From: Candidatus Hadarchaeum sp.
Lineage (GTDB): Archaea; Hadarchaeota; Hadarchaeia; Hadarchaeales; Hadarchaeaceae
Length of the DNA stretch: 64,000 bases
Direction of reading: 5' to 3'
Assembly: GCA_020725055.1 (NCBI GenBank)
Contig: DYFS01000001.1
Span: forward strand, 275-64,274
Shown: in pieces, positions 543 to 40,685 of the stretch
Numbering within the stretch: position 1 is the first letter of the stretch
Layout of the letters: every line of letters begins with the position of its first letter
Program-made: the position numbers and the translations under genes
Notes under the pieces: generated by a model
Database searches by the model: none
The model's input: only the letters and a program-made list of their open reading frames with translations
What the model was told of the DNA's origin: nothing

Positions 543-611
543 TGTGTCCCAAGGGTTAAAACAACTTACGTTTTAGCAAAATTACTCATAGGAATATTTT
601 TAGTCGAAAAA

Positions 612-619
612 TATAAATA
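612..619 (+). promoter_or_regulatory. TATA-box-like element TATAAATA upstream of the hcy-synthase operon; GGAGGTG SD-like at 640-646
   Basis: AT-rich stretch 560-650 in GC-rich DNA; TATAAATA about 33 nt upstream of the GTG start at 652. Confidence 0.3.
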
Positions 620-651
620 GCGATGAAAACCCTTTACATCGAGGTGGGAGC

Positions 652-2160
652 GTGGTGACCAAGACTTACGAGGGGATTAACCAGCGCATCCGCGAGGGCG
701 AGGCGGTCGTCGTCACAGCTGAGGAGTTCGTTGAGATCGCGCGCGAGCGGGGCGCCAAGCGGGCCGCGAAGGAGGTCGACGTCGTCACCACAGGCACCTT
801 CGGGGCGATGTGCAGCTCGGGCGCCTTCTTGAACTTCGGGCATGCAGACCCGCCTATCAAGCTCGGTGGGGGGGAGATCTACCTGAACGACGTACCTGCT
901 TATACGGGGCTGGCCGCCGTTGACACGTACATCGGCGTGACCTCACTTTCGACCACCAAGGGCATGGAGTACGGAGGCGGGCACGTCATCGAAGACCTCG
1001 TGCGCGGCAAGGAAATCACGCTGCGAGGAAGCGGGTATGGCACCGACTGTTACCCACGCAAAGAGATAGAAACCACCATCACCATCCACGATCTAAACCA
1101 AGCGGTGCTGTGCAGCCCGCGGAACGCGTACCAGCGCTACAACGCAGCGACGAACTCACGCGATGAAACCCTCTTCACCTACATGGGCACGCTTCTGCCG
1201 AACTTCGGCAACGTCACCTTCTCCGGGGCGGGGGTCTTGAGCCCGCTTGGCAGGGATCCGAACTACGAGACCATCGGCGTTGGGGCTCGGATTTTCTTAG
1301 GGGGGGCGCAGGGCTACATCGGTTGGGAGGGCACCCAGCACAATCCCACCAAGGGCTTCGGCACGGTGCTTGTGATAGGCGACCTCAAGGAGATGGATCC
1401 GCGCTACCTGCGAGGCTGCACCATCCACCGCTACGGCACCTCGCTCTACATCGGCTTGGGCATCCCGATCCCGCTACTTAACGAGCGGATCGCAGAGGCG
1501 GCTGCGGTTGGTGAAGAGCAGATAAAGGTGAACCTGCTCGACTACGGCGCGCCCCGGCGGGATAGGCCGGTGGTGCGGGAGGTCACCTACGCGGAGCTCA
1601 GGTCGGGCAAGGTTGAGGTCCACGGGAGGGAGGTGCCGACCAGCCCCCTCAGCAGTTTCAAGCTCTCGCGCGAGGTAGCGCAGAAGCTGAAGGAGTGGAT
1701 CCAGCGCGGCGAGTTCTTCCTCAGCGCGCCCGTCGAGTTGCTATCTCGCGACTCCGCGTTCAAACCGATGAAGCAGATTGCAGAGGTGCCGCTCGTGAGG
1801 GAGATCATGACAAAACCTGTGATAACCGGACTGCCCGACGAACCGATCGCGCGTGCCGCTAAAATATTCGCCGAGCACAACTTTGACCACCTGCCCATCA
1901 CAGACAAGCAGGAAAAGCTCTTGGGTATTGTCACCTCTTGGGATGTCGCCATAGCCACCGGCACGAAGAAGAAGAAACTCTCAGAAATCATGACGAAGAA
2001 GGTGGTTGTCGCGAATGAGGACGAGCCGGTCGATGCCGTGGCGAGGAGGCTGCAGCAACATGGTATCTCCGGGCTGCCGGTTACAAACACAAAGGGCGAA
2101 GTCGTGGGGATAGTCACCACGGAAGATATTTCAAAACTTGTCGGGAGGCGAAGGAAATGA
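652..2160 (+). CDS. L-aspartate-semialdehyde sulfurtransferase / homocysteine biosynthesis protein (COG1900 domain + tandem CBS domains; MA1821/MJ0100 family)
   Basis: 502 aa. N-terminal DUF39/COG1900 region (TTGTFGAMCSSGAFLNFGH, GGGHVIEDL). C-terminal two CBS-like repeats (ITGLPDEPIARAAKIFAEHNFDHLPI; VVVANEDEPVDAVARRLQQHGISGLPV). Stop overlaps next gene start (ATGA at 2157-2160). Confidence 0.75.
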   Translation: MVTKTYEGINQRIREGEAVVVTAEEFVEIARERGAKRAAKEVDVVTTGTFGAMCSSGAFLNFGHADPPIKLGGGEIYLNDVPAYTGLAAVDTYIGVTSLSTTKGMEYGGGHVIEDLVRGKEITLRGSGYGTDCYPRKEIETTITIHDLNQAVLCSPRNAYQRYNAATNSRDETLFTYMGTLLPNFGNVTFSGAGVLSPLGRDPNYETIGVGARIFLGGAQGYIGWEGTQHNPTKGFGTVLVIGDLKEMDPRYLRGCTIHRYGTSLYIGLGIPIPLLNERIAEAAAVGEEQIKVNLLDYGAPRRDRPVVREVTYAELRSGKVEVHGREVPTSPLSSFKLSREVAQKLKEWIQRGEFFLSAPVELLSRDSAFKPMKQIAEVPLVREIMTKPVITGLPDEPIARAAKIFAEHNFDHLPITDKQEKLLGIVTSWDVAIATGTKKKKLSEIMTKKVVVANEDEPVDAVARRLQQHGISGLPVTNTKGEVVGIVTTEDISKLVGRRRK

Positions 2161-2558
2161 CGGCTAAGCTACTGCTGAGGTACTCGCCAGAGGCGCTGGA
2201 CAAGCCGATTTTGGCGAGGGTAATAAGGCAAACGAGTGCCGAGATAAATATCTTGCATGCCGAGCTCGACGCCACGAAGGGCGAAATCCTAGTAGGTGTC
2301 GAAGCCCCGCCAGCCGAGATTGAAAAATTGATGTACCTGCTCAAGAAAAACGGCATCGATGCAAAAAAACTCGAGCGGGCAGTCGAGCTCGACGAGAACA
2401 GCTGCTTAGATTGCGGTGCGTGCCTCTCGCTATGCCCGACGGGGGCGCTGCACACTAAAAAAGATTATTCGGTGAGGCTTGACGAGGACAAATGTATACT
2501 CTGCGAGGTGTGCATCCCGGCGTGCCCGGTGAGGGCGATAAAGATTACTAAATTTTGA
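2157..2558 (+). CDS. NIL-domain 2x[4Fe-4S] ferredoxin, partner of the hcy-synthase (MA1822/MJ0099 family)
   Basis: 133 aa. N-terminal NIL-type domain (SAEINILHAELD). C-terminal two CxxCxxCxxxCP motifs (CLDCGACLSLCP, CILCEVCIPACP). Translationally coupled to upstream gene. Confidence 0.75.
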   Translation: MTAKLLLRYSPEALDKPILARVIRQTSAEINILHAELDATKGEILVGVEAPPAEIEKLMYLLKKNGIDAKKLERAVELDENSCLDCGACLSLCPTGALHTKKDYSVRLDEDKCILCEVCIPACPVRAIKITKF

Positions 2559-2603
2559 CTTCAGCAACTCACCTTTTTATGGCGCCAAACGTGCAATTAC
2601 TTA

Positions 2604-3827
2604 GTGGTTGTGGGGTATACGATGCCAAAGATCCCAAAAGAAAAACTTGAAAAATATCTCCACTTGCATCGAGAGTTCACGGGAAAATTCATCAACCTCC
2701 ACCCGATCCAGCGGGGCGGCATCCTCACGGAAGCTGCGAGGAAAGCCATAGTCGAATTTGGAGACGGTTACTCGACGTGCGATTGGTGCCCACCGAAGAC
2801 GCCGAGGCTCGACATGATCGAGCGCCCCCCGATTGCCCAGTTCATGGCTGATCTCGCGACCTTCTTGGGTATGGATGTCGCACGGGTCGTGACCCGCTGC
2901 AGGGAGGCGAAATTCATAGCTTTCGCTATGCTCGGCAAACCGGGCGACACCGTGGTCGTCGACAGCCTAGCGCATTATTCAACGTATACGGCGGCGGAGT
3001 TGGCGGGGCTGAATGTAAAGGAGGTCCCCCACGGAGACTACCCAGAATTTAAAGTCGGCTTGAACGCCTACGCCGACAAGATAGAGGAAGTAAAAAAGGA
3101 AACAGGAAAGCTCCCGGCGGTAGTTGTTCTCACCCACGTCGACTACCTTTACGGCAATTTAAACGACGCTGCTGTCGTCGGCAAGATATGTAAAAAGTAC
3201 GGGGTGCCGTTCTTGCTCAACGCCGCGTACACTGCAGGCGTGATGCCGATCGACGGCAAAAAGCTGGGCGCAGATATCATCGTGAGCAGCGGGCACAAGA
3301 GCTGGGCTGCGAGCGCACCGACGGGCATCTTGGCGATGAAGGAAGATATTGCCGGCGATGTTCTCAAGCGGTCAAAAATCGTCGGGGACTTGAGCGGGCG
3401 CAAGTTCGCGGCGAAGGAGTACGCCCTGCTCGGCTGCACGGTCATGGGGGCGCCCCTCATCACCCTCATGGCATCTTTTCCGCATGTAGTGGAGCGAGTC
3501 GAGCACTGGCAGGAAGAGGTCGAAAAGGCGAGGTACTTGGTCAAGCTGATCGAGCGGATCGAGGGGACCCGGCAGCTCGGCATCAAGCCAAAACAGCACA
3601 CGTTGATCCACATGGAATCCGATGGGCTCCATAAGGTTTCTGAAACGCACAAGCGCAGGGGTTTCTTCCTGTACGATGAGCTTAGGGAGAGAAATATCGT
3701 GGGGATTCAAGCGGGCCTGACGAAGCACTTCAAGCTCAACACCTATGGCCTGAGTTTAAATCAAGTAAAAACCGTGGCGAAGGCATTCGAAGAGATAGCC
3801 AAAAAATACGGGTTAAAAGTTGGGTGA
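2604..3827 (+). CDS. pscS: O-phospho-L-seryl-tRNA(Cys):Cys-tRNA synthase SepCysS (PLP-dependent)
   Basis: 407 aa. N-terminus PKIPKEKLEKY..FINLHPIQRGGILTEAARKA..FGDGYSTCDWC is typical of SepCysS. PLP-lysine context SSGHKSWAASAPTG. Alternative start at ATG 2622 (MPKIP). Confidence 0.7.
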   Translation: MVVGYTMPKIPKEKLEKYLHLHREFTGKFINLHPIQRGGILTEAARKAIVEFGDGYSTCDWCPPKTPRLDMIERPPIAQFMADLATFLGMDVARVVTRCREAKFIAFAMLGKPGDTVVVDSLAHYSTYTAAELAGLNVKEVPHGDYPEFKVGLNAYADKIEEVKKETGKLPAVVVLTHVDYLYGNLNDAAVVGKICKKYGVPFLLNAAYTAGVMPIDGKKLGADIIVSSGHKSWAASAPTGILAMKEDIAGDVLKRSKIVGDLSGRKFAAKEYALLGCTVMGAPLITLMASFPHVVERVEHWQEEVEKARYLVKLIERIEGTRQLGIKPKQHTLIHMESDGLHKVSETHKRRGFFLYDELRERNIVGIQAGLTKHFKLNTYGLSLNQVKTVAKAFEEIAKKYGLKVG

Positions 3828-4575
3828 GCTGATGGCAAGGCGGCGCAGCCCTAGCGCGTTGAAGATAAGAAACCTGAGCGTTGAAATCGCCGGTAAAAAG
3901 GTGCTGGATGGGGTCGACCTAGAGGTGCTGAGGGGAGAGATCCACGTTCTGTTCGGTCCAAACGGGTCTGGAAAAACATCGCTGATGATGTCCATCTTGG
4001 GTTTTCCGAGCTACCGCATCCTATCGGGCGAAATTCTGCTTAATGGTACCGACATCACTAACATGTCGATAAACGAGCGCGTGAAACTTGGCATCGGCAT
4101 AGCTTTTCAAAGTTCCCCGACAATACGGGGCGTTAAATTGGGCGACGTCTTGCGCCACCTCGCCGGGAGTAAAATTGACGGGGCGAAGATGGCTGGGGCT
4201 GTTAACCTCGATGCGGAGTTTTTGAACAGGGATTTGAACGTTGGATTTTCTGGAGGCGAACTCAGGCGATCGGAGGTTTTGCAGGTACTCGTGCAGCGGC
4301 CGAGTTTCGCGATATTCGACGAGCCCGATTCTGGGGTGGATGTCGAGAACTTAGAGGTGGTCGGCGGCGCGATCAATAACTTGCTCAAGAAGCGGTCGGG
4401 GCTTTTGATAACGCACCAAGGCTACATCCTGCGGTATGTGGAGGCTGATAAAGCGCACGTGATGCTTAACGGGAGAATCGTCTGTTCTGGAATACCCACC
4501 AAGATTCTCAGCCAGATAATGAAAAGGGGCTACAAGTGGTGTGAAAAATGTCCAAAAGCAAGGAGACCGCACTAA
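3820..4575 (+). CDS. sufC: Fe-S cluster assembly ATPase SufC
   Basis: 251 aa. Walker A GPNGSGKTS, ABC signature FSGGELRRSEVLQ, Walker B/D-loop AIFDEPDSGVD, H-loop ITHQ. Overlaps SepCysS end by 8 nt. Confidence 0.85.
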   Translation: MGELMARRRSPSALKIRNLSVEIAGKKVLDGVDLEVLRGEIHVLFGPNGSGKTSLMMSILGFPSYRILSGEILLNGTDITNMSINERVKLGIGIAFQSSPTIRGVKLGDVLRHLAGSKIDGAKMAGAVNLDAEFLNRDLNVGFSGGELRRSEVLQVLVQRPSFAIFDEPDSGVDVENLEVVGGAINNLLKKRSGLLITHQGYILRYVEADKAHVMLNGRIVCSGIPTKILSQIMKRGYKWCEKCPKARRPH

Positions 4576-5771
4576 AGGCAAAGGGGAAGCCGGCTGCCCT
4601 CGGCCCCGATCTCGATGTTGGGAGATTCACGAGGGATGCTAAAACGTGGGGCTATTGTCCTGTCTCGTCCCTCCCCGAAGACATCGCTCGGAGATCGCTG
4701 GCCGTTGGTGTTAGGGCCGACGAGGGAGAGAGGGCCGGCACGTATTTCCAGATAGACCATTCAACAGTTTTTCAAAAAATTCAAAAAAAGTTTGAGGGAA
4801 AAACCGAGATAATGAGCACCAAAGACGCGCTTGAAAAATACGACTGGATGGAGGATTACTGGTGGAAAGTCGTCTCCGCTGATGCAGACAAATACACCGC
4901 CTTGGCCGAGCTGGAGTGGGACCGCGGCTATTTCATCAGGGCGCTCGAGGGGCAAAAAATCACGTTGCCGCTGCAGGCATGCCTTTTCATCTCGAAGGAT
5001 AACCTAGACCAAAACGTCCATAATGTTATAATCGCCGAGCCGAATTCGGAGATCCAAATAATAACGGGCTGCACCGTCCATCCAAACGTCCAGCGCGGGC
5101 TGCATGTTGGGATTTCCGAGTTTTTCATAAAAGAATGGGCAAAACTCACATTCACCATGATCCACAACTGGGCCCAAAATTTCGATGTCCGCCCACGAAC
5201 CGGGGCGCTCGTTGAGGATAACGCCACATTCGTGACTAACTACGTTTGCCTGAATCCTGTGAAGAGCCTCCAGATGTATCCAGTCGCTTATTGCAAGGGG
5301 GAAAATTCAAGGGCAAGATTTACCTCTATTTTATACGGGGCCGGGGATTCCTACCTAGATGTTGGCTCTAAAACAGTTCTCCAGGGAACTGGAAGCAGGG
5401 CAGAAGTCATCGCCCGCGCTATCGCTCTTGACCGCGCGCGGATCTATAGCCGCGGCCTTCTAGTCGGAGAGAAAGAGGATACTAAAGCGCACCTTGAGTG
5501 CAGGGGTCTTTTACTTTCAGATGATGCATTCATCCACGCGATTCCCGAACTTACCGCGAAGGTGCAGGGTACAGAGCTCTCACACGAAGCTGCGGTCGGC
5601 AAGATAGCAGAGGAACAAATCCAATACTTGATGGCAAGGGGATTTTCAGAGCTCGAAGCCCAGTCGCTGATCGTTAGGGGATTTATGGACGTGGGCATTC
5701 TTGGGCTGCCCAAAGCGTTAGAAACTGAGATCAAACGAATAGTCGATACGACGGCTGCCGCTGCTATTTAG
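4548..5771 (+). CDS. sufB: Fe-S cluster assembly scaffold SufB/SufD-family protein
   Basis: 407 aa. Length and position right after sufC (28-nt overlap) are typical of archaeal SufBD. Ends with TAG stop at 5769-5771. Confidence 0.75.
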   Translation: MSKSKETALKAKGKPAALGPDLDVGRFTRDAKTWGYCPVSSLPEDIARRSLAVGVRADEGERAGTYFQIDHSTVFQKIQKKFEGKTEIMSTKDALEKYDWMEDYWWKVVSADADKYTALAELEWDRGYFIRALEGQKITLPLQACLFISKDNLDQNVHNVIIAEPNSEIQIITGCTVHPNVQRGLHVGISEFFIKEWAKLTFTMIHNWAQNFDVRPRTGALVEDNATFVTNYVCLNPVKSLQMYPVAYCKGENSRARFTSILYGAGDSYLDVGSKTVLQGTGSRAEVIARAIALDRARIYSRGLLVGEKEDTKAHLECRGLLLSDDAFIHAIPELTAKVQGTELSHEAAVGKIAEEQIQYLMARGFSELEAQSLIVRGFMDVGILGLPKALETEIKRIVDTTAAAAI

Positions 5772-11705: not shown

Positions 11706-11793
11706 TGGTGGACCGGGCGGGATTTGAACCCGCGCCCTCTCGCTGTTTCGGTTGCCATGCGAAGCGAGTGCGCTGCCGCTGCGCTACCGGCCC
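11706..11793 (-). tRNA. tRNA-Ala (CGC) with 13-nt canonical intron, CCA encoded
   Basis: GGGCCGG UA GCGC AGCGGCA GCGC A CUCGC UUCGCA [TGGCAACCGAAAC] A GCGAG AGGGC GCGGG UUCAAAU CCCGC CCGGUCC A CCA. G3:U70 Ala identity pair present. Confidence 0.7.
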
Positions 11794-30214: not shown

Positions 30215-33270
<3,056 letters not shown>

Positions 33271-33374
33271 ATCTCTGAACCCAGCTTGCGCTAGGACAGA
33301 CCTATGCATGGCAATCATCTTGCGATGACCGCAATATCGCCCTTCGCTCGTGAATTTACTCACGAGCTGCACGA

Positions 33375-33449
33375 TGGTGGACCCGCCGGGACTCGAACCC
33401 GGGACCTTCGGCTTGCAAAGCCGACGCTCTACCACTGAGCTACGGGCCC
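33375..33449 (-). tRNA. tRNA-Ala (UGC) in 16S-23S spacer, CCA encoded
   Basis: GGGCCCGUAGCUCAGUGGUAGAGCGUCGGCUUUGCAAGCCGAAGGUCCCGGGUUCGAGUCCCGGCGGGUCCACCA. G3:U70 present. Confidence 0.9.
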
Positions 33450-33478
33450 TCCGAGGGTTCGGTACCCCAAACTTCAAA

Positions 33479-34957
<1,479 letters not shown>

Positions 34958-35217
34958 AAGTCGCAAGCTAAATTGCGGGGTACCGAACCTATCTCGGACC
35001 CGAGCTCTTCCGGTTGCCCGGCTTGTTCCGGTCCACATTGGTTTATCCACACCAAGAATACAATCCTTCATCGCGGGGCCATGCGCGCTTTGCCCCAAAC
35101 TCGGATCGACGCCGTTCACACTGCAGTGTGGACATCTAATGTTCTAAAGGTTATACTACTTAAGATTTTCTTTTCACGTAAAAACCCTGAATTGAGCTTG
35201 ATTTGGATGAAAAAGGG

Positions 35218-35315
35218 GCCAAGGCCGGGATTTCCGTCAAGATGTATCCTCTTGAATTCGAACCCGGGTCACGGGATCCACAGTCCCGGATGTTAACCAC
35301 TACACTACCTTGGCC
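35218..35315 (-). tRNA. tRNA-His (GUG) with about 26-nt non-canonical intron in the T-loop/T-stem junction
   Basis: G(-1) GCCAAGG UA GUGU AGUGGUUA ACAU C CGGGA CUGUGGA UCCCG UGAC CCGGG UUCGAAU [TCAAGAGGATACATCTTGACGGAAAT] CCCGG CCUUGGC C. Intron holds inverted repeat TCAAGA/TCTTGA. G-1 and C73 His identity elements present. Confidence 0.65.
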
Positions 35316-35376: not shown

Positions 35377-36726
35377 TTGTCAAAACCAAAGGAGATTCGT
35401 TTGTCCAGCCGAATCAAGTGGCTTAGCGACATCATCCCGCCTGAGCAAGTCGGTGAACTTACTGCGCTCAACAGAATCAAAGTGGCTCGAACGCCTTCGG
35501 GCTCCCTCTGCCTGCTGTGCAAGGGCGGGCGGATGCTCTGCGGCAAGCTGAGGTGCCCGATAATCGCGAAGGCCCAAGCTATTGCGAAGTCGAGCCGCCT
35601 AATTATCTCGGAAAGCGTTGAGGGGTCAACTCCACCAGGGGTGTTCGTGGGGCACGTCGGTTATCCAAAAGTGTACATCGGCCCCATGGTCCCCCCATAC
35701 TTCGGTGATACGGAGATACTCGATACCCCAGAGCTCTGGATCGGGAAAACCATCGACGACGTCATCGATTACCGCTTCTCCCTAATCAGGGGGAAAACCC
35801 TCGCGAGTGTTTTCGATGCTCGAACTGGCGGGAAGCTACTCGATGTGCTCCAGGAGCTCGCGATGGGCACTCACCCGGTCGACTCGGAGGCCCAATTCAC
35901 GAGGAGGCCCAGAGGGGTGATCAGCTTGAGCGAGGATACCCAGCCATTTGGGCCCGCCGCCCCCTTGAGGTCTTTCAAAGTTGCTGATGTCGACGTTGAT
36001 CAAAGGATTGAGCGCGCATTTTACGATCGCGACCTGAAGGCATCGGATGCAGTGGTGGAGCTGTACGAAAAAGGGGTACTGGTGACCAGAATCCAACGTG
36101 CCTTCAGCCTCGGGATGTTCGGCTCCGCAGCCAAGCGGAAGCTCGTCCCGACGCGCTGGAGCATAACCGCGGTCGACAGCGCCCTCTCGCTCAACCTCAT
36201 CGACCGCATCAAGCAGCACGACACAATCGACGAATACCGCGTGTACTCCTTCAAAAACTTAGATAATTACTACGTCGCCATCCTGATGCCCGAGCAGTGG
36301 AGCTTCGAGTGGATTGAAGCGTGGTTCCCGGGCACGACATGGAACCCGGACGAGCGAGCCGCTGCCCCAGCGATGATGGGGGACTTCGAGCCCTACTGGG
36401 GGCGGATGACCTATCCAGACGTGGGGGGGTGTTACTACGCTTGCAGGCTGGCGGTGGCTGAGCGGCTGAACCGGGAGCGGAGGCAGGCCTCGGCGCTCGT
36501 GCTTCGAGAGATCCACCCGGGTTACATCTTGCCCGTAGGGGTCTGGGGCGTGAGGGAAAGCGTGCGGGCCGCGATGCGGACGGAGCCGCAGAGGTTTGAC
36601 AACTTTCATGCTGCGCTGGATTGTGCGATGACGAAACTCACCATCCCGCTCAAAAAATGGATTGAAGCGAGCGAACTTCTGAAACGCGCTCTATTTCAGA
36701 AAAAAATCACGGAGTTCGCCCCATGA
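35377..36726 (+). CDS. nreA: Nre-family putative DNA repair protein (COG1602; DUF650/DUF651)
   Basis: 449 aa. N-terminal C-x2-C-x5-C-x4-C zinc cluster (CLLCKGGRMLCGKLRCP) and overall length match archaeal Nre proteins. Stop overlaps next gene start (ATGA 36723-36726). Confidence 0.6.
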   Translation: MSKPKEIRLSSRIKWLSDIIPPEQVGELTALNRIKVARTPSGSLCLLCKGGRMLCGKLRCPIIAKAQAIAKSSRLIISESVEGSTPPGVFVGHVGYPKVYIGPMVPPYFGDTEILDTPELWIGKTIDDVIDYRFSLIRGKTLASVFDARTGGKLLDVLQELAMGTHPVDSEAQFTRRPRGVISLSEDTQPFGPAAPLRSFKVADVDVDQRIERAFYDRDLKASDAVVELYEKGVLVTRIQRAFSLGMFGSAAKRKLVPTRWSITAVDSALSLNLIDRIKQHDTIDEYRVYSFKNLDNYYVAILMPEQWSFEWIEAWFPGTTWNPDERAAAPAMMGDFEPYWGRMTYPDVGGCYYACRLAVAERLNRERRQASALVLREIHPGYILPVGVWGVRESVRAAMRTEPQRFDNFHAALDCAMTKLTIPLKKWIEASELLKRALFQKKITEFAP

Positions 36727-37556
36727 GCGTCGAGTATTCATCCATCACCTGCAAAACTGCCCTCTCCACCAGCAAGTTGCCGGGCCTTCGGTATTCTTTG
36801 AACCCGTATACGGGTTGCGAGCACGGCTGCGTTTACTGCTACAGCCCCTCGGTCCTTGGGAACAGGGAGTTCGCGCTCAAGTGGGGCAGTTTCGTGAAGG
36901 CCAAACGAAACTTGCCCGAAGTCTTGGGTCGGGAGCTGAACCGAAAACCACGGGGGGTGGTTGGTGTGAGCACGGTCACGGATCCCTACCAGCCCGCCGA
37001 AGCCAAGCTCGAACTGACGAGGCAGTGCCTCGAGCTTCTCTCGCGACGAGATTTTCCCGTTTCGATCCAAACGAAATCAAGCTTGGTTTTGCGGGACGCT
37101 GACCTCATCAAGCAGGGAAGCTTCGACGTCGGGGTGACGATAACAACTATGGACAGGGAGCTCGCGGAAAAAATCGAGCCAAGGGCCTCCCCCCCCGATG
37201 CTAGGGCCAGCGCGCTTGAGGGGCTCTCGTCGCGTGGCGTCGAAACGTGGGTTTTCTTGGGACCGTTGATACCTGAGGTAAACGATGGCAAGGAAAGCAT
37301 CAGGCGCGTGGTCGAGGTCGCAAAACGGACCGGGAGCAAGCTCATCTATGACAAACTCAACCTCAAGCGGTGGGTCCCAGAGAGGCTTACCCCCATCCTC
37401 GACCGGGAGCGACCTGGGCTCGCCGAGCGGCTGCCAGCCCGGATAAGCCAGAGGGGCGGGCGTTGGCGCGCGACTTGCTCGACCGTAGAAGTGATTTGCC
37501 GCGAACTCGGGGTACGCTGCGAGCCGGCATTCCCCAGCTGGCCGAGCGCCGCTTGA
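36723..37556 (+). CDS. radical SAM protein, spore-photoproduct-lyase-like 'DNA repair photolyase' family (COG1533)
   Basis: 277 aa. Radical SAM cluster motif CEHGCVYC near N-terminus. Partial TIM-barrel-like layout (VTDPYQP, FLGPLIP) typical of SplB-like enzymes. Confidence 0.65.
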   Translation: MSVEYSSITCKTALSTSKLPGLRYSLNPYTGCEHGCVYCYSPSVLGNREFALKWGSFVKAKRNLPEVLGRELNRKPRGVVGVSTVTDPYQPAEAKLELTRQCLELLSRRDFPVSIQTKSSLVLRDADLIKQGSFDVGVTITTMDRELAEKIEPRASPPDARASALEGLSSRGVETWVFLGPLIPEVNDGKESIRRVVEVAKRTGSKLIYDKLNLKRWVPERLTPILDRERPGLAERLPARISQRGGRWRATCSTVEVICRELGVRCEPAFPSWPSAA

Positions 37557-37651
37557 CTACCCGGAAACATGTAATAATTTTTTGAAATGGTGCGGGGGAA
37601 TAGGTTTATACTACCGTTTGAATCTACCGAAACTGTCCCCGCCGCCGAACA

Positions 37652-38068
37652 TCATTTGCCGGTGCCGAGGACCTCTAACATCTGGCCTACGGTCACTGTT
37701 TTGATCCCTCTAAACCCCTTTAACGAGAGCAGATGTTTATCTCCGGATACTATGTAATCCGCCCTGCCGTCGTGGGCTGCCCTCAACACCACATCGTCGT
37801 CGGGGTCTTCCTCGATTACTTTGAACCGGGATCTGATCTTGACTATGGTGGCGATGCTTCCAACGATCCTCAGGAAGGCTATTGTGTCATCCTCATTAAC
37901 GTATCTCCTTATCATCGGGTCGTCTGTAATTTCAAGGAACTCTTCTAGGATGTCTCTGGAAGTGACCACCTGAATTTTCTTCCTCGCAAGTTCGAAGATA
38001 AGCTCTCTTGGCTTTCCGGATTTAATTAGAGCGGACACTAGGACGTTTGTATCGAGAACAACTTTCAT
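37652..38068 (-). CDS. vapC: PIN-domain ribonuclease, VapC-like toxin
   Basis: 138 aa. MKVVLDTNVLVSAL with conserved Asp6. Later acidic residues (DDDVVLRAAHDGRADYIVSGDKHL) typical of PIN. Confidence 0.7.
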   Translation of the reverse strand: MKVVLDTNVLVSALIKSGKPRELIFELARKKIQVVTSRDILEEFLEITDDPMIRRYVNEDDTIAFLRIVGSIATIVKIRSRFKVIEEDPDDDVVLRAAHDGRADYIVSGDKHLLSLKGFRGIKTVTVGQMLEVLGTGK

Positions 38069-38081
38069 CCCACGACCTTCA

Positions 38082-38363
38082 CTAAGAAGTCTTCGCCCTA
38101 TGTTTCTGGATTATTGCCTCTATCTCTTCATTAGTCAGTTCACCGTACTTTGCGATTTTAACGTCGACTCTTTTGTAAACACCTTCCAGCTCTTTCGCCA
38201 CGTTAGGCACCTCTAACTTCTTCATTATCACCGCATCCTGATAACCGTACACGAGAAACTTTGTTTTTGGCCCGATGCCTAACTTCCTCCTTATTGCTTT
38301 AGGTATCACTACCTGCCCCTTGCTACTGAGAACAGCCACATCTGGTTTCTCGTAACGTTTCAT
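38082..38363 (-). CDS. vapB: AbrB/MazE/SpoVT-type antitoxin (VapB-like)
   Basis: 93 aa. Looped-hinge-helix core VLSSKGQVVIPKAIRRKLGI. 13-nt gap to the downstream PIN gene on the same strand. Confidence 0.65.
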   Translation of the reverse strand: MKRYEKPDVAVLSSKGQVVIPKAIRRKLGIGPKTKFLVYGYQDAVIMKKLEVPNVAKELEGVYKRVDVKIAKYGELTNEEIEAIIQKHRAKTS

Positions 38364-40576: not shown

Positions 40577-40685
40577 TGGTGCCCCGGGCGGGATTTGAAC
40601 CCGCGTCGCGGCCTTTCTTCGTCTGATACCCGAAAGGGCCGTATGATTTCGGCGCTTGCGCTTGACCGGTCTACACCACCGGGGC
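40577..40685 (-). tRNA. tRNA-Glu (UUC) with two introns: non-canonical in D-loop (about 14-16 nt) and canonical 37/38 (16 nt)
   Basis: GCCCCGG UG GUGUAGACCGG[TCAAGCGCAAGCGCCG]AAAUCAU A CGGCC CUUUCG [GGTATCAGACGAAGAA] A GGCCG CGAC GCGGG UUCAAAU CCCGC CCGGGGC A CCA. Spliced form closely matches canonical archaeal tRNA-Glu. Confidence 0.6.

Follow-up and report, generated by a model that had tools for sequence, protein, structure and literature searches.

A 64,000-nucleotide stretch of a contig from Candidatus Hadarchaeum sp., an uncultured Hadarchaeota archaeon, was analysed; it is called the window here, and all coordinates are positions in it. The source names of the best database hits agree with an origin in Hadarchaeota. 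On the forward strand, at 35377..37556 (+), the window carries a two-gene operon that encodes a protein of the Nre family and a radical S-adenosylmethionine (SAM) protein that resembles spore photoproduct lyase (SPL). The operon is an instance of an archaeal pairing that has already been described, and we are highly confident of the identity of its two parts. A first-pass annotation, made from the sequence, had proposed the pair as a candidate two-component DNA repair module. The observation behind this proposal was confirmed, and its interpretation is partly supported.

The Nre gene belongs to the subfamily that is linked to radical SAM genes. It spans 35401..36726 (+), encodes 441 amino acid residues and contains the Pfam domains Nre_N and Nre_C. 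The mechanically called open reading frame (ORF) starts further upstream at a TTG at 35377 and has 449 residues (35377..36726, +). The start is probably TTG 35401 rather than the TTG of the longest ORF, because the public gene call for the same contig (JGI 3300029892, Ga0246235_100167) has 441 residues and a Shine-Dalgarno-like AAGGAG (35389..35394, +), a putative ribosome-binding site, ends 6 nt before TTG 35401. The second gene, an SPL-like radical SAM gene of the COG1533 type with a Pfam Radical_SAM domain, lies at 36723..37556 (+) and encodes 277 residues. As the first-pass annotation had stated, the stop codon of the Nre gene and the start codon of the radical SAM gene share an ATGA, at 36723..36726 (+). 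This overlap is predicted to couple the translation of the two genes. A GGAG in the 3'-terminal part of the Nre gene (36711..36714, +), 8 nt 5' of the ATG, is the putative ribosome-binding site of the second gene. The transcript probably ends at a run of six T (37578..37583, +), 22 nt past the stop codon, which is a candidate archaeal terminator. The next gene, which encodes a PIN toxin, is convergent and has its end at 37652. Given the T-run behind the second stop codon and the convergent orientation of the next gene, we regard the unit as an operon of two genes.

The first protein is a member of the Nre family (PF04894 and PF04895; COG1602). In the Pfam search both domains exceeded their gathering cut-offs and were covered from end to end, Nre_N at profile positions 1-270 of 270 (2.8e-99, 332.7 bits, cut-off 25) and Nre_C at positions 1-110 of 110 (3.8e-40, 136.6 bits, cut-off 27). 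It is encoded by the only Nre gene of the 64-kb window. The N-terminus has a Cys4 motif, C37-x2-C40-x6-C47-x4-C52-P (35509..35556, +), and its cysteines were invariant in an alignment of close homologues (A1) and at least 90% conserved in a diverse alignment (A3), which was built from a full-library search that yielded 1166 Nre cluster representatives. In the AlphaFold model the Cys4 segment had low confidence. The first-pass annotation had called the motif a zinc-cysteine cluster; the four cysteines are indeed there, whereas the zinc cannot be taken as given because the literature leaves Zn and Fe-S open. In the N-terminal extension of the protein, W7 and L8 were invariant among the close homologues.

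At the C-terminus, residues 433-440 of 441 form the sequence QKKITEFA (36697..36720, +), which resembles a PCNA-interacting protein (PIP) box and is a putative PCNA-binding site. The box Q-[RK]-[RK]-[ILM]-x-[DE]-[FY], a form of Qxx[ILM]xx[FY], closes nearly all of the 76 subfamily Nre proteins regardless of whether they are linked to a radical SAM gene, and Q433 was invariant among close homologues and in the subfamily alignment. By analogy with the NreA proteins of Archaeoglobus fulgidus and Haloferax volcanii, the Nre of the window may bind PCNA through this box. About 80 residues were at least 97% conserved within the subfamily. Since many of these are acidic, basic, or tryptophan and other aromatic residues, their conservation would suit an enzyme better than a passive adaptor. 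The two proteins of the operon are both basic, with isoelectric points of 8.8 and 9.4. An assignment of the Nre protein to NreA or NreB was tried and dropped. The NCBIfam equivalog for haloarchaeal NreA (NF041387) gave 237.6 bits against a cut-off of 700, and all other non-halophile Nre proteins tested reached 214-295 bits, so that this model does not discriminate between Nre subfamilies; the family tree was star-like at this depth.

The 277-residue protein matched Pfam Radical_SAM (PF04055) at 1.7e-13 with 51.6 bits against a cut-off of 29.5. Its best NCBIfam match was PA0069 (NF033668) at 2.9e-49, and Rv2578c (NF038135) was matched at 2.3e-34; the scores of 167.9 and 118.9 bits fell below the respective cut-offs of 360 and 430. 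Judged by these scores, the protein is related to both families and a member of neither. Among its NCBIfam and Pfam matches at E <= 0.01 there was no family of anaerobic ribonucleotide reductase (RNR) activases, QueE or pyruvate formate-lyase (PFL)-activating enzymes. Close homologues are named 'DNA repair photolyase' by JGI and, in the case of one protein, 'SPL family radical SAM protein' by NCBI. The AlphaFold model (pLDDT 85) is a partial TIM barrel that matched many radical SAM structures. The top six Foldseek matches in the PDB were all SPL (4fhg, 4fhc, 4k9r, 4rh0, 4fhe and 4fhf), with E values of 5e-9 to 1e-7 and TM scores of 0.65-0.68. The PFL-activating enzyme 3c8f came next (TM 0.57, E 1e-6). 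The family assignments of the first-pass annotation, Nre (COG1602) and COG1533-type radical SAM, thus hold by Pfam, NCBIfam and fold. It had named RNR activase and QueE as classifications that would speak against it, and the protein is neither of these, the nearest hidden Markov models (HMMs) and the nearest fold being of the COG1533/SPL type.

The cluster motif C32-x3-C36-x-Y38-C39-Y40 (36816..36842, +) provides the [4Fe-4S]/SAM site together with a tyrosine pair of the SPL type. Its cysteines, C32-x3-C36-x2-C39, were invariant in 43 homologues that are linked to an Nre gene, and the protein is predicted to be intact as a radical SAM enzyme. An auxiliary Fe-S cluster was considered and rejected. 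C10, C259 and C266 are invariant in Hadarchaeota, but only 44-79% conserved across the linked homologues. The non-cluster cysteines as a whole ranged from 44 to 84%, with C10 at 79% and C102 at 84%, and because they are only partly conserved a second conserved cluster is unlikely.

The linkage of the two genes across archaea was surveyed in two scans. For the genome scan, the alignment A3 was run against one genome per GTDB species, and the 80 best loci had an Nre 45-78% identical to that of the window. A close homologue of the 277-residue protein was encoded within 4 kb of the Nre gene in 44 loci and was absent in 32, and 4 loci were too short to tell. Linkage was therefore seen at 44 of 76 informative loci, and at 42 of these 44 the radical SAM gene was located directly downstream on the same strand. 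Overlaps were found in 17 of the 42 downstream cases (nine by exactly 4 nt) and gaps of 0-25 bp in 13 more, these sizes being approximate because the start codons were picked heuristically. The metagenome scan was centred on the distant Nre P0356, an Archaeoglobi protein annotated 'NreA' by NCBI, and sampled the rest of the family. When the Nre was at least 42% identical to that of the window, 11 of 24 loci were linked; when it was below 42%, a single one of 38 informative loci was. For both scans combined, this gives 55/100 against 1/38 linked loci (Fisher p = 1.3e-9).

An all-against-all clustering of the neighbouring ORFs showed that the radical SAM gene is the sole widely conserved neighbour of Nre. 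In the reverse look-up, all three radical SAM homologues on long contigs had an Nre gene immediately upstream, and their other neighbours were unrelated. The pairwise distances of the Nre and radical SAM proteins correlated with r = 0.76, which is weak evidence because both proteins also follow the species phylogeny. We conclude that Nre and the radical SAM gene are joined by a real and old link, which, given 55/100 against 1/38, is specific to one Nre subfamily. The co-occurrence of the two families, whose lack would have counted against the module, is conserved. The idea that the two genes share a pathway gains support as well, since the pair has been kept in many archaeal lineages while all other context was reshuffled.

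The frequency of the linkage differed between taxa. According to the taxon names on the records, linked loci made up 22 of 22 informative ones in Thermoplasmata, Methanomassiliicoccales and "Methanobacteriota", 5/5 in Methanoperedens and Methanosarcinales, 5/6 in Hadarchaeota, 4/5 in "Nitrososphaeria" and 2/3 in DPANN, where the arrangement was divergent. In Bathyarchaeia the count was 3/23, and in Nitrososphaerales and Thaumarchaeota 0/5. In a neighbour-joining tree of the linked Nre subfamily the linkage was patchy over the clades, which fits an ancestral linkage with repeated loss. Oxygen as the cause of the loss was considered; it fits the Nitrososphaerales and Thaumarchaeota, where no locus was linked, but does not fit the anaerobic Bathyarchaeia.

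Other genes were observed beside Nre in part of the loci. In one Thermoplasmata clade, a gene for a NUDIX hydrolase of about 140-150 residues (Pfam NUDIX 4.7e-24) lies between the Nre and the radical SAM gene; its positions are 4887..5320 in locus L049, 5215..5650 in L057 and L063, 5266..5700 in L066 and 1491..1860 in L158. In 8 loci from Bathyarchaeia, a NUDIX gene likewise recurred at a distance of a few kb from Nre. Among the loci without the radical SAM partner, Nre adjoins Rad50-like and Mre11-like genes in five from Thaumarchaeota and Nitrososphaerales (as in L016 at 610..2643 and L021 at 2650..3900) and FEN1 in five from Bathyarchaeia (as in L013 at 2798..3832). The Rad50/Mre11 and FEN1 neighbours tie Nre to the repair and replication of DNA in particular lineages, and with the NUDIX neighbours they fit a role of Nre in DNA metabolism. 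Seven Nre genes, in L032, L036, L050, L108, L139, L159 and L163, were unlinked despite linked nearest relatives. The Methanoperedens-type Nre shares about 62-65% identity with the products of six of these genes and almost full identity with that of L050. One member, L032, has been binned as Hadarchaeota. The group may represent a second Nre paralogue or come from mis-binned contigs.

The radical SAM protein was then compared with SPL, with the defining residues of SPL taken from PMC3467042. When a profile of the 43 Nre-linked homologues was aligned by hhalign with an SPL reference, which was a stitched reconstruction from a frameshifted Ectobacillus splB locus, the probability was 95% with an E value of 9e-9 over 248 columns at 20% identity. 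At the level of plain sequence the similarity to SPL is marginal. A phmmer search against the SPL sequences of the PDB gave E = 0.6, and the Pfam SPL family PF20903, whose cut-off is 27 bits, scored 11.3 bits in a match confined to the cluster loop (residues 15-50). The cluster cysteines C90, C94 and C97 of SPL are kept as C32, C36 and C39, and the tyrosines Y96 and Y98 as the invariant Y38 and Y40, the segment GCEHGCVYCY aligning with GCMGHCHYCY of SPL. K174, which contacts the SAM carboxylate, is kept as K118, and S195 corresponds to T139. The motif E-P-x-x-S/T-P of SPL is likewise kept, at E152-P153. The N-terminal approximately 58 residues of SPL are missing. The closest solved fold is that of SPL (SplB of Geobacillus thermodenitrificans, 4FHC-4FHG), with which the protein shares the partial TIM barrel of radical SAM enzymes, whereas the identity is about 13-20% and SPL has no Nre partner. 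The protein is a genuine distant SPL homologue of the COG1533 type, SPL-like and no SPL orthologue. The splB locus used for the reference, from Ectobacillus funiculus (GCA_039536045.1, locus L083, 1802..2844), is broken by frameshifts into ORFs of 51, 70 and 146 residues, which reflects either assembly errors or a pseudogene.

The pair of NreB and an SplB-like protein was reportedly described by Giroux and MacNeill in Mol Microbiol in 2016. The nreB gene is adjacent to, and sometimes overlaps, an SplB-like gene in various archaea (MacNeill 2016, Curr Genet, PMC4929162). The spore photoproduct is not known from archaea, and the substrate was speculated to be some other crosslink, within or between strands (PMC4929162). 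The window pair shows the same adjacency and overlap and invites the same speculation on crosslink repair. The first-pass annotation had offered the pair as a candidate module; since the pair has been in print since 2016, it restates a published hypothesis. By its ATGA overlap with an SplB-like gene, the Nre of the window has the adjacency that marks NreB. In contrast, the PIP motif of NreB was described as less distinct and the window subfamily has a clear Qxx[ILM]xx[FY], a comparison made by description.

The first-pass annotation was mistaken in stating that Nre proteins are tied to repair solely by genomic context. NreA of A. fulgidus binds PCNA in the yeast two-hybrid system, and deletion of nreA in H. 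volcanii causes sensitivity to mitomycin C that is epistatic with uvrABC and depends on the PIP motif (PMC4929162, PMC7776575). The loss of NreA causes no growth defect in H. volcanii (PMC4929162). Attempts to purify Nre proteins failed (PMC4929162, PMC7776575). NreA of H. volcanii (HVO_0734) is the sole Nre with genetic data and has Nre_N, Nre_C and a C-terminal PIP motif like the window protein. It differs from the window protein in having no N-terminal Cys4 site, and it is not reported to have an SplB-like neighbour. SplB-like radical SAM genes of bacteria are likewise found within operons for the SOS response and repair (Aravind et al. 2013, PMC3765255). Such bacterial COG1533 proteins (PA0069, Rv2578c) are uncharacterised, have the best HMM similarity to the window protein and share with it a repair gene neighbourhood. 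Their partners differ, being ImuB-C, DUF4130 or UDG, whereas Nre is specific to archaea. A later functional study of the Nre/SplB-like pair was not found in the literature searched.

We favour a mechanism in which Nre is tethered to PCNA and works together with an SPL-like radical SAM enzyme on a DNA lesion other than the spore photoproduct, and we give this reading about an even chance. Nre would dock on PCNA via its C-terminal box at a replication or repair intermediate. There it would handle the DNA and recruit the radical SAM partner, whose 5'-deoxyadenosyl radical would abstract a hydrogen atom from the lesion. The lesion would then be reversed or rendered processable; its most plausible form is a bulky adduct or a crosslink within or between strands. 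This reading draws on the conserved linkage of the two genes, on the PIP-like box together with the published PCNA binding and PIP-dependent repair of NreA, on the repair and replication genes beside Nre, on the basic nature of both proteins, on the relationship of the partner to SPL and on the bacterial SplB-like genes in repair operons.

Several results weigh against this reading, and the first of them concern the active site of the radical SAM protein. The hydrogen-donor cysteine of SPL, C140 (C141 in B. subtilis), corresponds to K75, or to T84 by motif alignment, neither of which is a cysteine. At S76 of SPL, the position that holds the cysteine in the Clostridium enzyme (C77), the window protein has K18, again no cysteine, and neither of these two positions of the fourth cysteine is a cysteine in the 43 linked homologues. 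The base-binding R193 is replaced by G137. The C-terminal beta-hairpin with R304 and Y305, which flips the lesion in SPL, is not predicted, residues 212-262 being helical; this comparison rests on the AlphaFold model, as confidence in the hhalign alignment is low towards the C-terminus. With the fourth cysteine, R193 and the hairpin all missing, a chemistry like that of SPL cannot be assumed. Other points concern Nre. About half of the subfamily loci have no radical SAM neighbour, and NreA of H. volcanii acts with UvrABC, so Nre is not dependent on the radical SAM enzyme. A solved structure resembling Nre was not found by sequence, profile or Foldseek search, the best Foldseek match having an E value of 8e-3 and TM scores being at most 0.17, so that its model has no significant structural match and the DNA-handling role of Nre is putative. 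In the subfamily alignment no column separates linked from unlinked Nre proteins, so no signature of an interface between Nre and the radical SAM protein is visible. Finally, neither the Nre proteins nor the archaeal SplB-like proteins have a known biochemical activity (PMC4929162).

A bolder form of the favoured mechanism would turn the missing SPL elements into a prediction. Nre would supply in trans the hairpin, the base-binding arginine and the hydrogen-donor cysteine that its partner has lost, and the two proteins would form a PCNA-tethered machine of mostly anaerobic archaea. During replication, this machine would directly reverse a lesion of the crosslink type that is not the spore photoproduct. 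We regard this form as speculative and rather unlikely.

The pair might also modify or process nucleic acid instead of reversing a lesion, for example by a radical modification of DNA or RNA bases at the fork or by the clearing of a replication-blocking structure. Radical SAM enzymes with similar cores modify RNA, and MiaB was among the structural matches. SPL-like enzymes are reported to take part in the hypermodification of phage thymidine (PMC8989533), and Aravind and colleagues wrote that related bacterial SplB-like systems 'might modify thymines' (PMC3765255). Against this, the loss of NreA has a damage-specific phenotype, with sensitivity to mitomycin C and normal growth, and the Rad50/Mre11, FEN1 and NUDIX neighbours are repair or replication factors. 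There were no PADLOC defence hits, and methyltransferase or modification genes were not found among the neighbours in related loci. We consider a modifying role improbable.

The roles could be reversed if the radical SAM protein acted on Nre as an activase or maturase, equipping it with a radical or a post-translational modification as the PFL-activating enzyme does with pyruvate formate-lyase, and Nre were the DNA catalyst. The PFL-activating enzyme (3C8F), whose radical SAM core is small and similar in size, was the second-best fold, but SPL was clearly closer by fold and by profile, no glycyl-radical enzyme is present as a partner, and no activase family of NCBIfam or Pfam and no activase HMM was matched. 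The radical SAM protein is small and has neither the DNA hairpin nor the hydrogen-donor cysteine of SPL, and a tight translational coupling is typical of enzyme/activase pairs. Nre also has a motif, G342-G343-C344-Y345, that is invariant within the subfamily; in the wider family C344 is not conserved, however, and only G343 and Y345 are kept in A3. In addition, Nre functions without such a partner in Haloferax and occurs without it in half of the subfamily loci. We consider an activase unlikely.

A further reading is that the two genes are functionally unconnected today and lie side by side by genomic accident or as a relic. MacNeill explicitly raised an 'evolutionary relict' (PMC4929162), and the unlinked half of the subfamily loci and the invisible interface are in line with it. 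Gene order, strand and overlaps of 1-4 nt have been maintained over several phyla amid reshuffled neighbours, however, the linkage is confined to one subfamily (p = 1.3e-9), and the pair is retained even where the NUDIX gene is inserted. A relic is thus very unlikely. Equally improbable is a true SPL orthologue that repairs 5-thyminyl-5,6-dihydrothymine, a reading that we rejected for its HMM score and for the missing fourth cysteine, R193 and hairpin. SPL is the best fold match, the database labels point to a photolyase or SPL, and the tyrosine pair and SAM-binding residues are kept, but PF20903 scored 11.3 bits, below its cut-off of 27, phmmer reached E = 0.6, the fourth cysteine at both known positions, R193, a predicted hairpin and the N-terminal 58 or so residues are all lacking, and there is no evidence of the spore photoproduct in archaea (PMC4929162).

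Nre is among the most widespread archaea-specific PCNA-binding proteins, its biochemistry is still lacking, and the archaeal SplB-like enzymes are likewise without a known substrate. If the favoured mechanism is true, a DNA repair route by radical chemistry would be tied to the sliding clamp. If Nre also supplied the missing elements in trans, radical-based DNA repair would for the first time be known beyond bacterial spores, and for the first time in a form coupled to the replisome. The question has been in print since 2016 and was not opened by the Hadarchaeota locus. Compared with 2016, the survey newly quantifies the linkage and shows it to be subfamily-specific, finds a clear PIP box on those Nre proteins that are linked, and gives the differences from SPL at the level of residues, by which the partner lacks precisely the elements that give SPL its autonomous DNA handling and radical quenching. 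Because of the subfamily link, the PIP box, the pairing across phyla and the missing SPL elements, the formation of a complex and the action on lesions other than the spore photoproduct are what should be tested. Candidates that have the pair are offered by Methanomassiliicoccales, by relatives of Methanoperedens and Methanosarcinales, and by Thermoplasmata.

The surroundings of the operon in the window were also analysed. An rRNA operon (16S, tRNA-Ala, 23S) occupies 30229..34956 (-). The first-pass annotation had placed the pair immediately downstream of it; the rRNA operon is nearby, but it is encoded on the opposite strand, hence divergent to the pair and outside its transcript, with a tRNA-His in between, and this position is not conserved. 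On the other side, the toxin-antitoxin module that had been noted downstream was confirmed at 37652..38363 (-), convergent and just 3' of the operon. It consists of a PIN_3 toxin (138 residues, 6.8e-18) and a MazE/AbrB-type antitoxin (93 residues, 2.3e-07). In none of the related loci examined does an rRNA operon or a toxin-antitoxin pair adjoin Nre. These neighbours are incidental for this reason, and both were ruled out as components of the system. A defence system was ruled out as well, there being no PADLOC hits. Beyond the toxin-antitoxin pair follow a tRNA-Leu and a peptidase-MA-like gene, neither of which is kept beside Nre elsewhere.

The tRNA-His(GUG), previously uncalled, is located at about 35214..35314 (-), between the 5' end of the 16S rRNA and the Nre gene. 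It has an insertion of about 25 nt in the region of the T-arm, which is probably a non-canonical intron. The Rfam tRNA model scored 24.1 bits against a cut-off of 29, and ARAGORN detected the tRNA only after 23-28 nt had been deleted. Two further tRNAs of the window probably contain introns as well, as is found in archaea. One, of 106 nt, at 40580..40685 (-), was found by Rfam and not reported by ARAGORN, and for the other, at 11706..11793 (-), ARAGORN left the identity undetermined and gave a 4-base 'anticodon', cgca.

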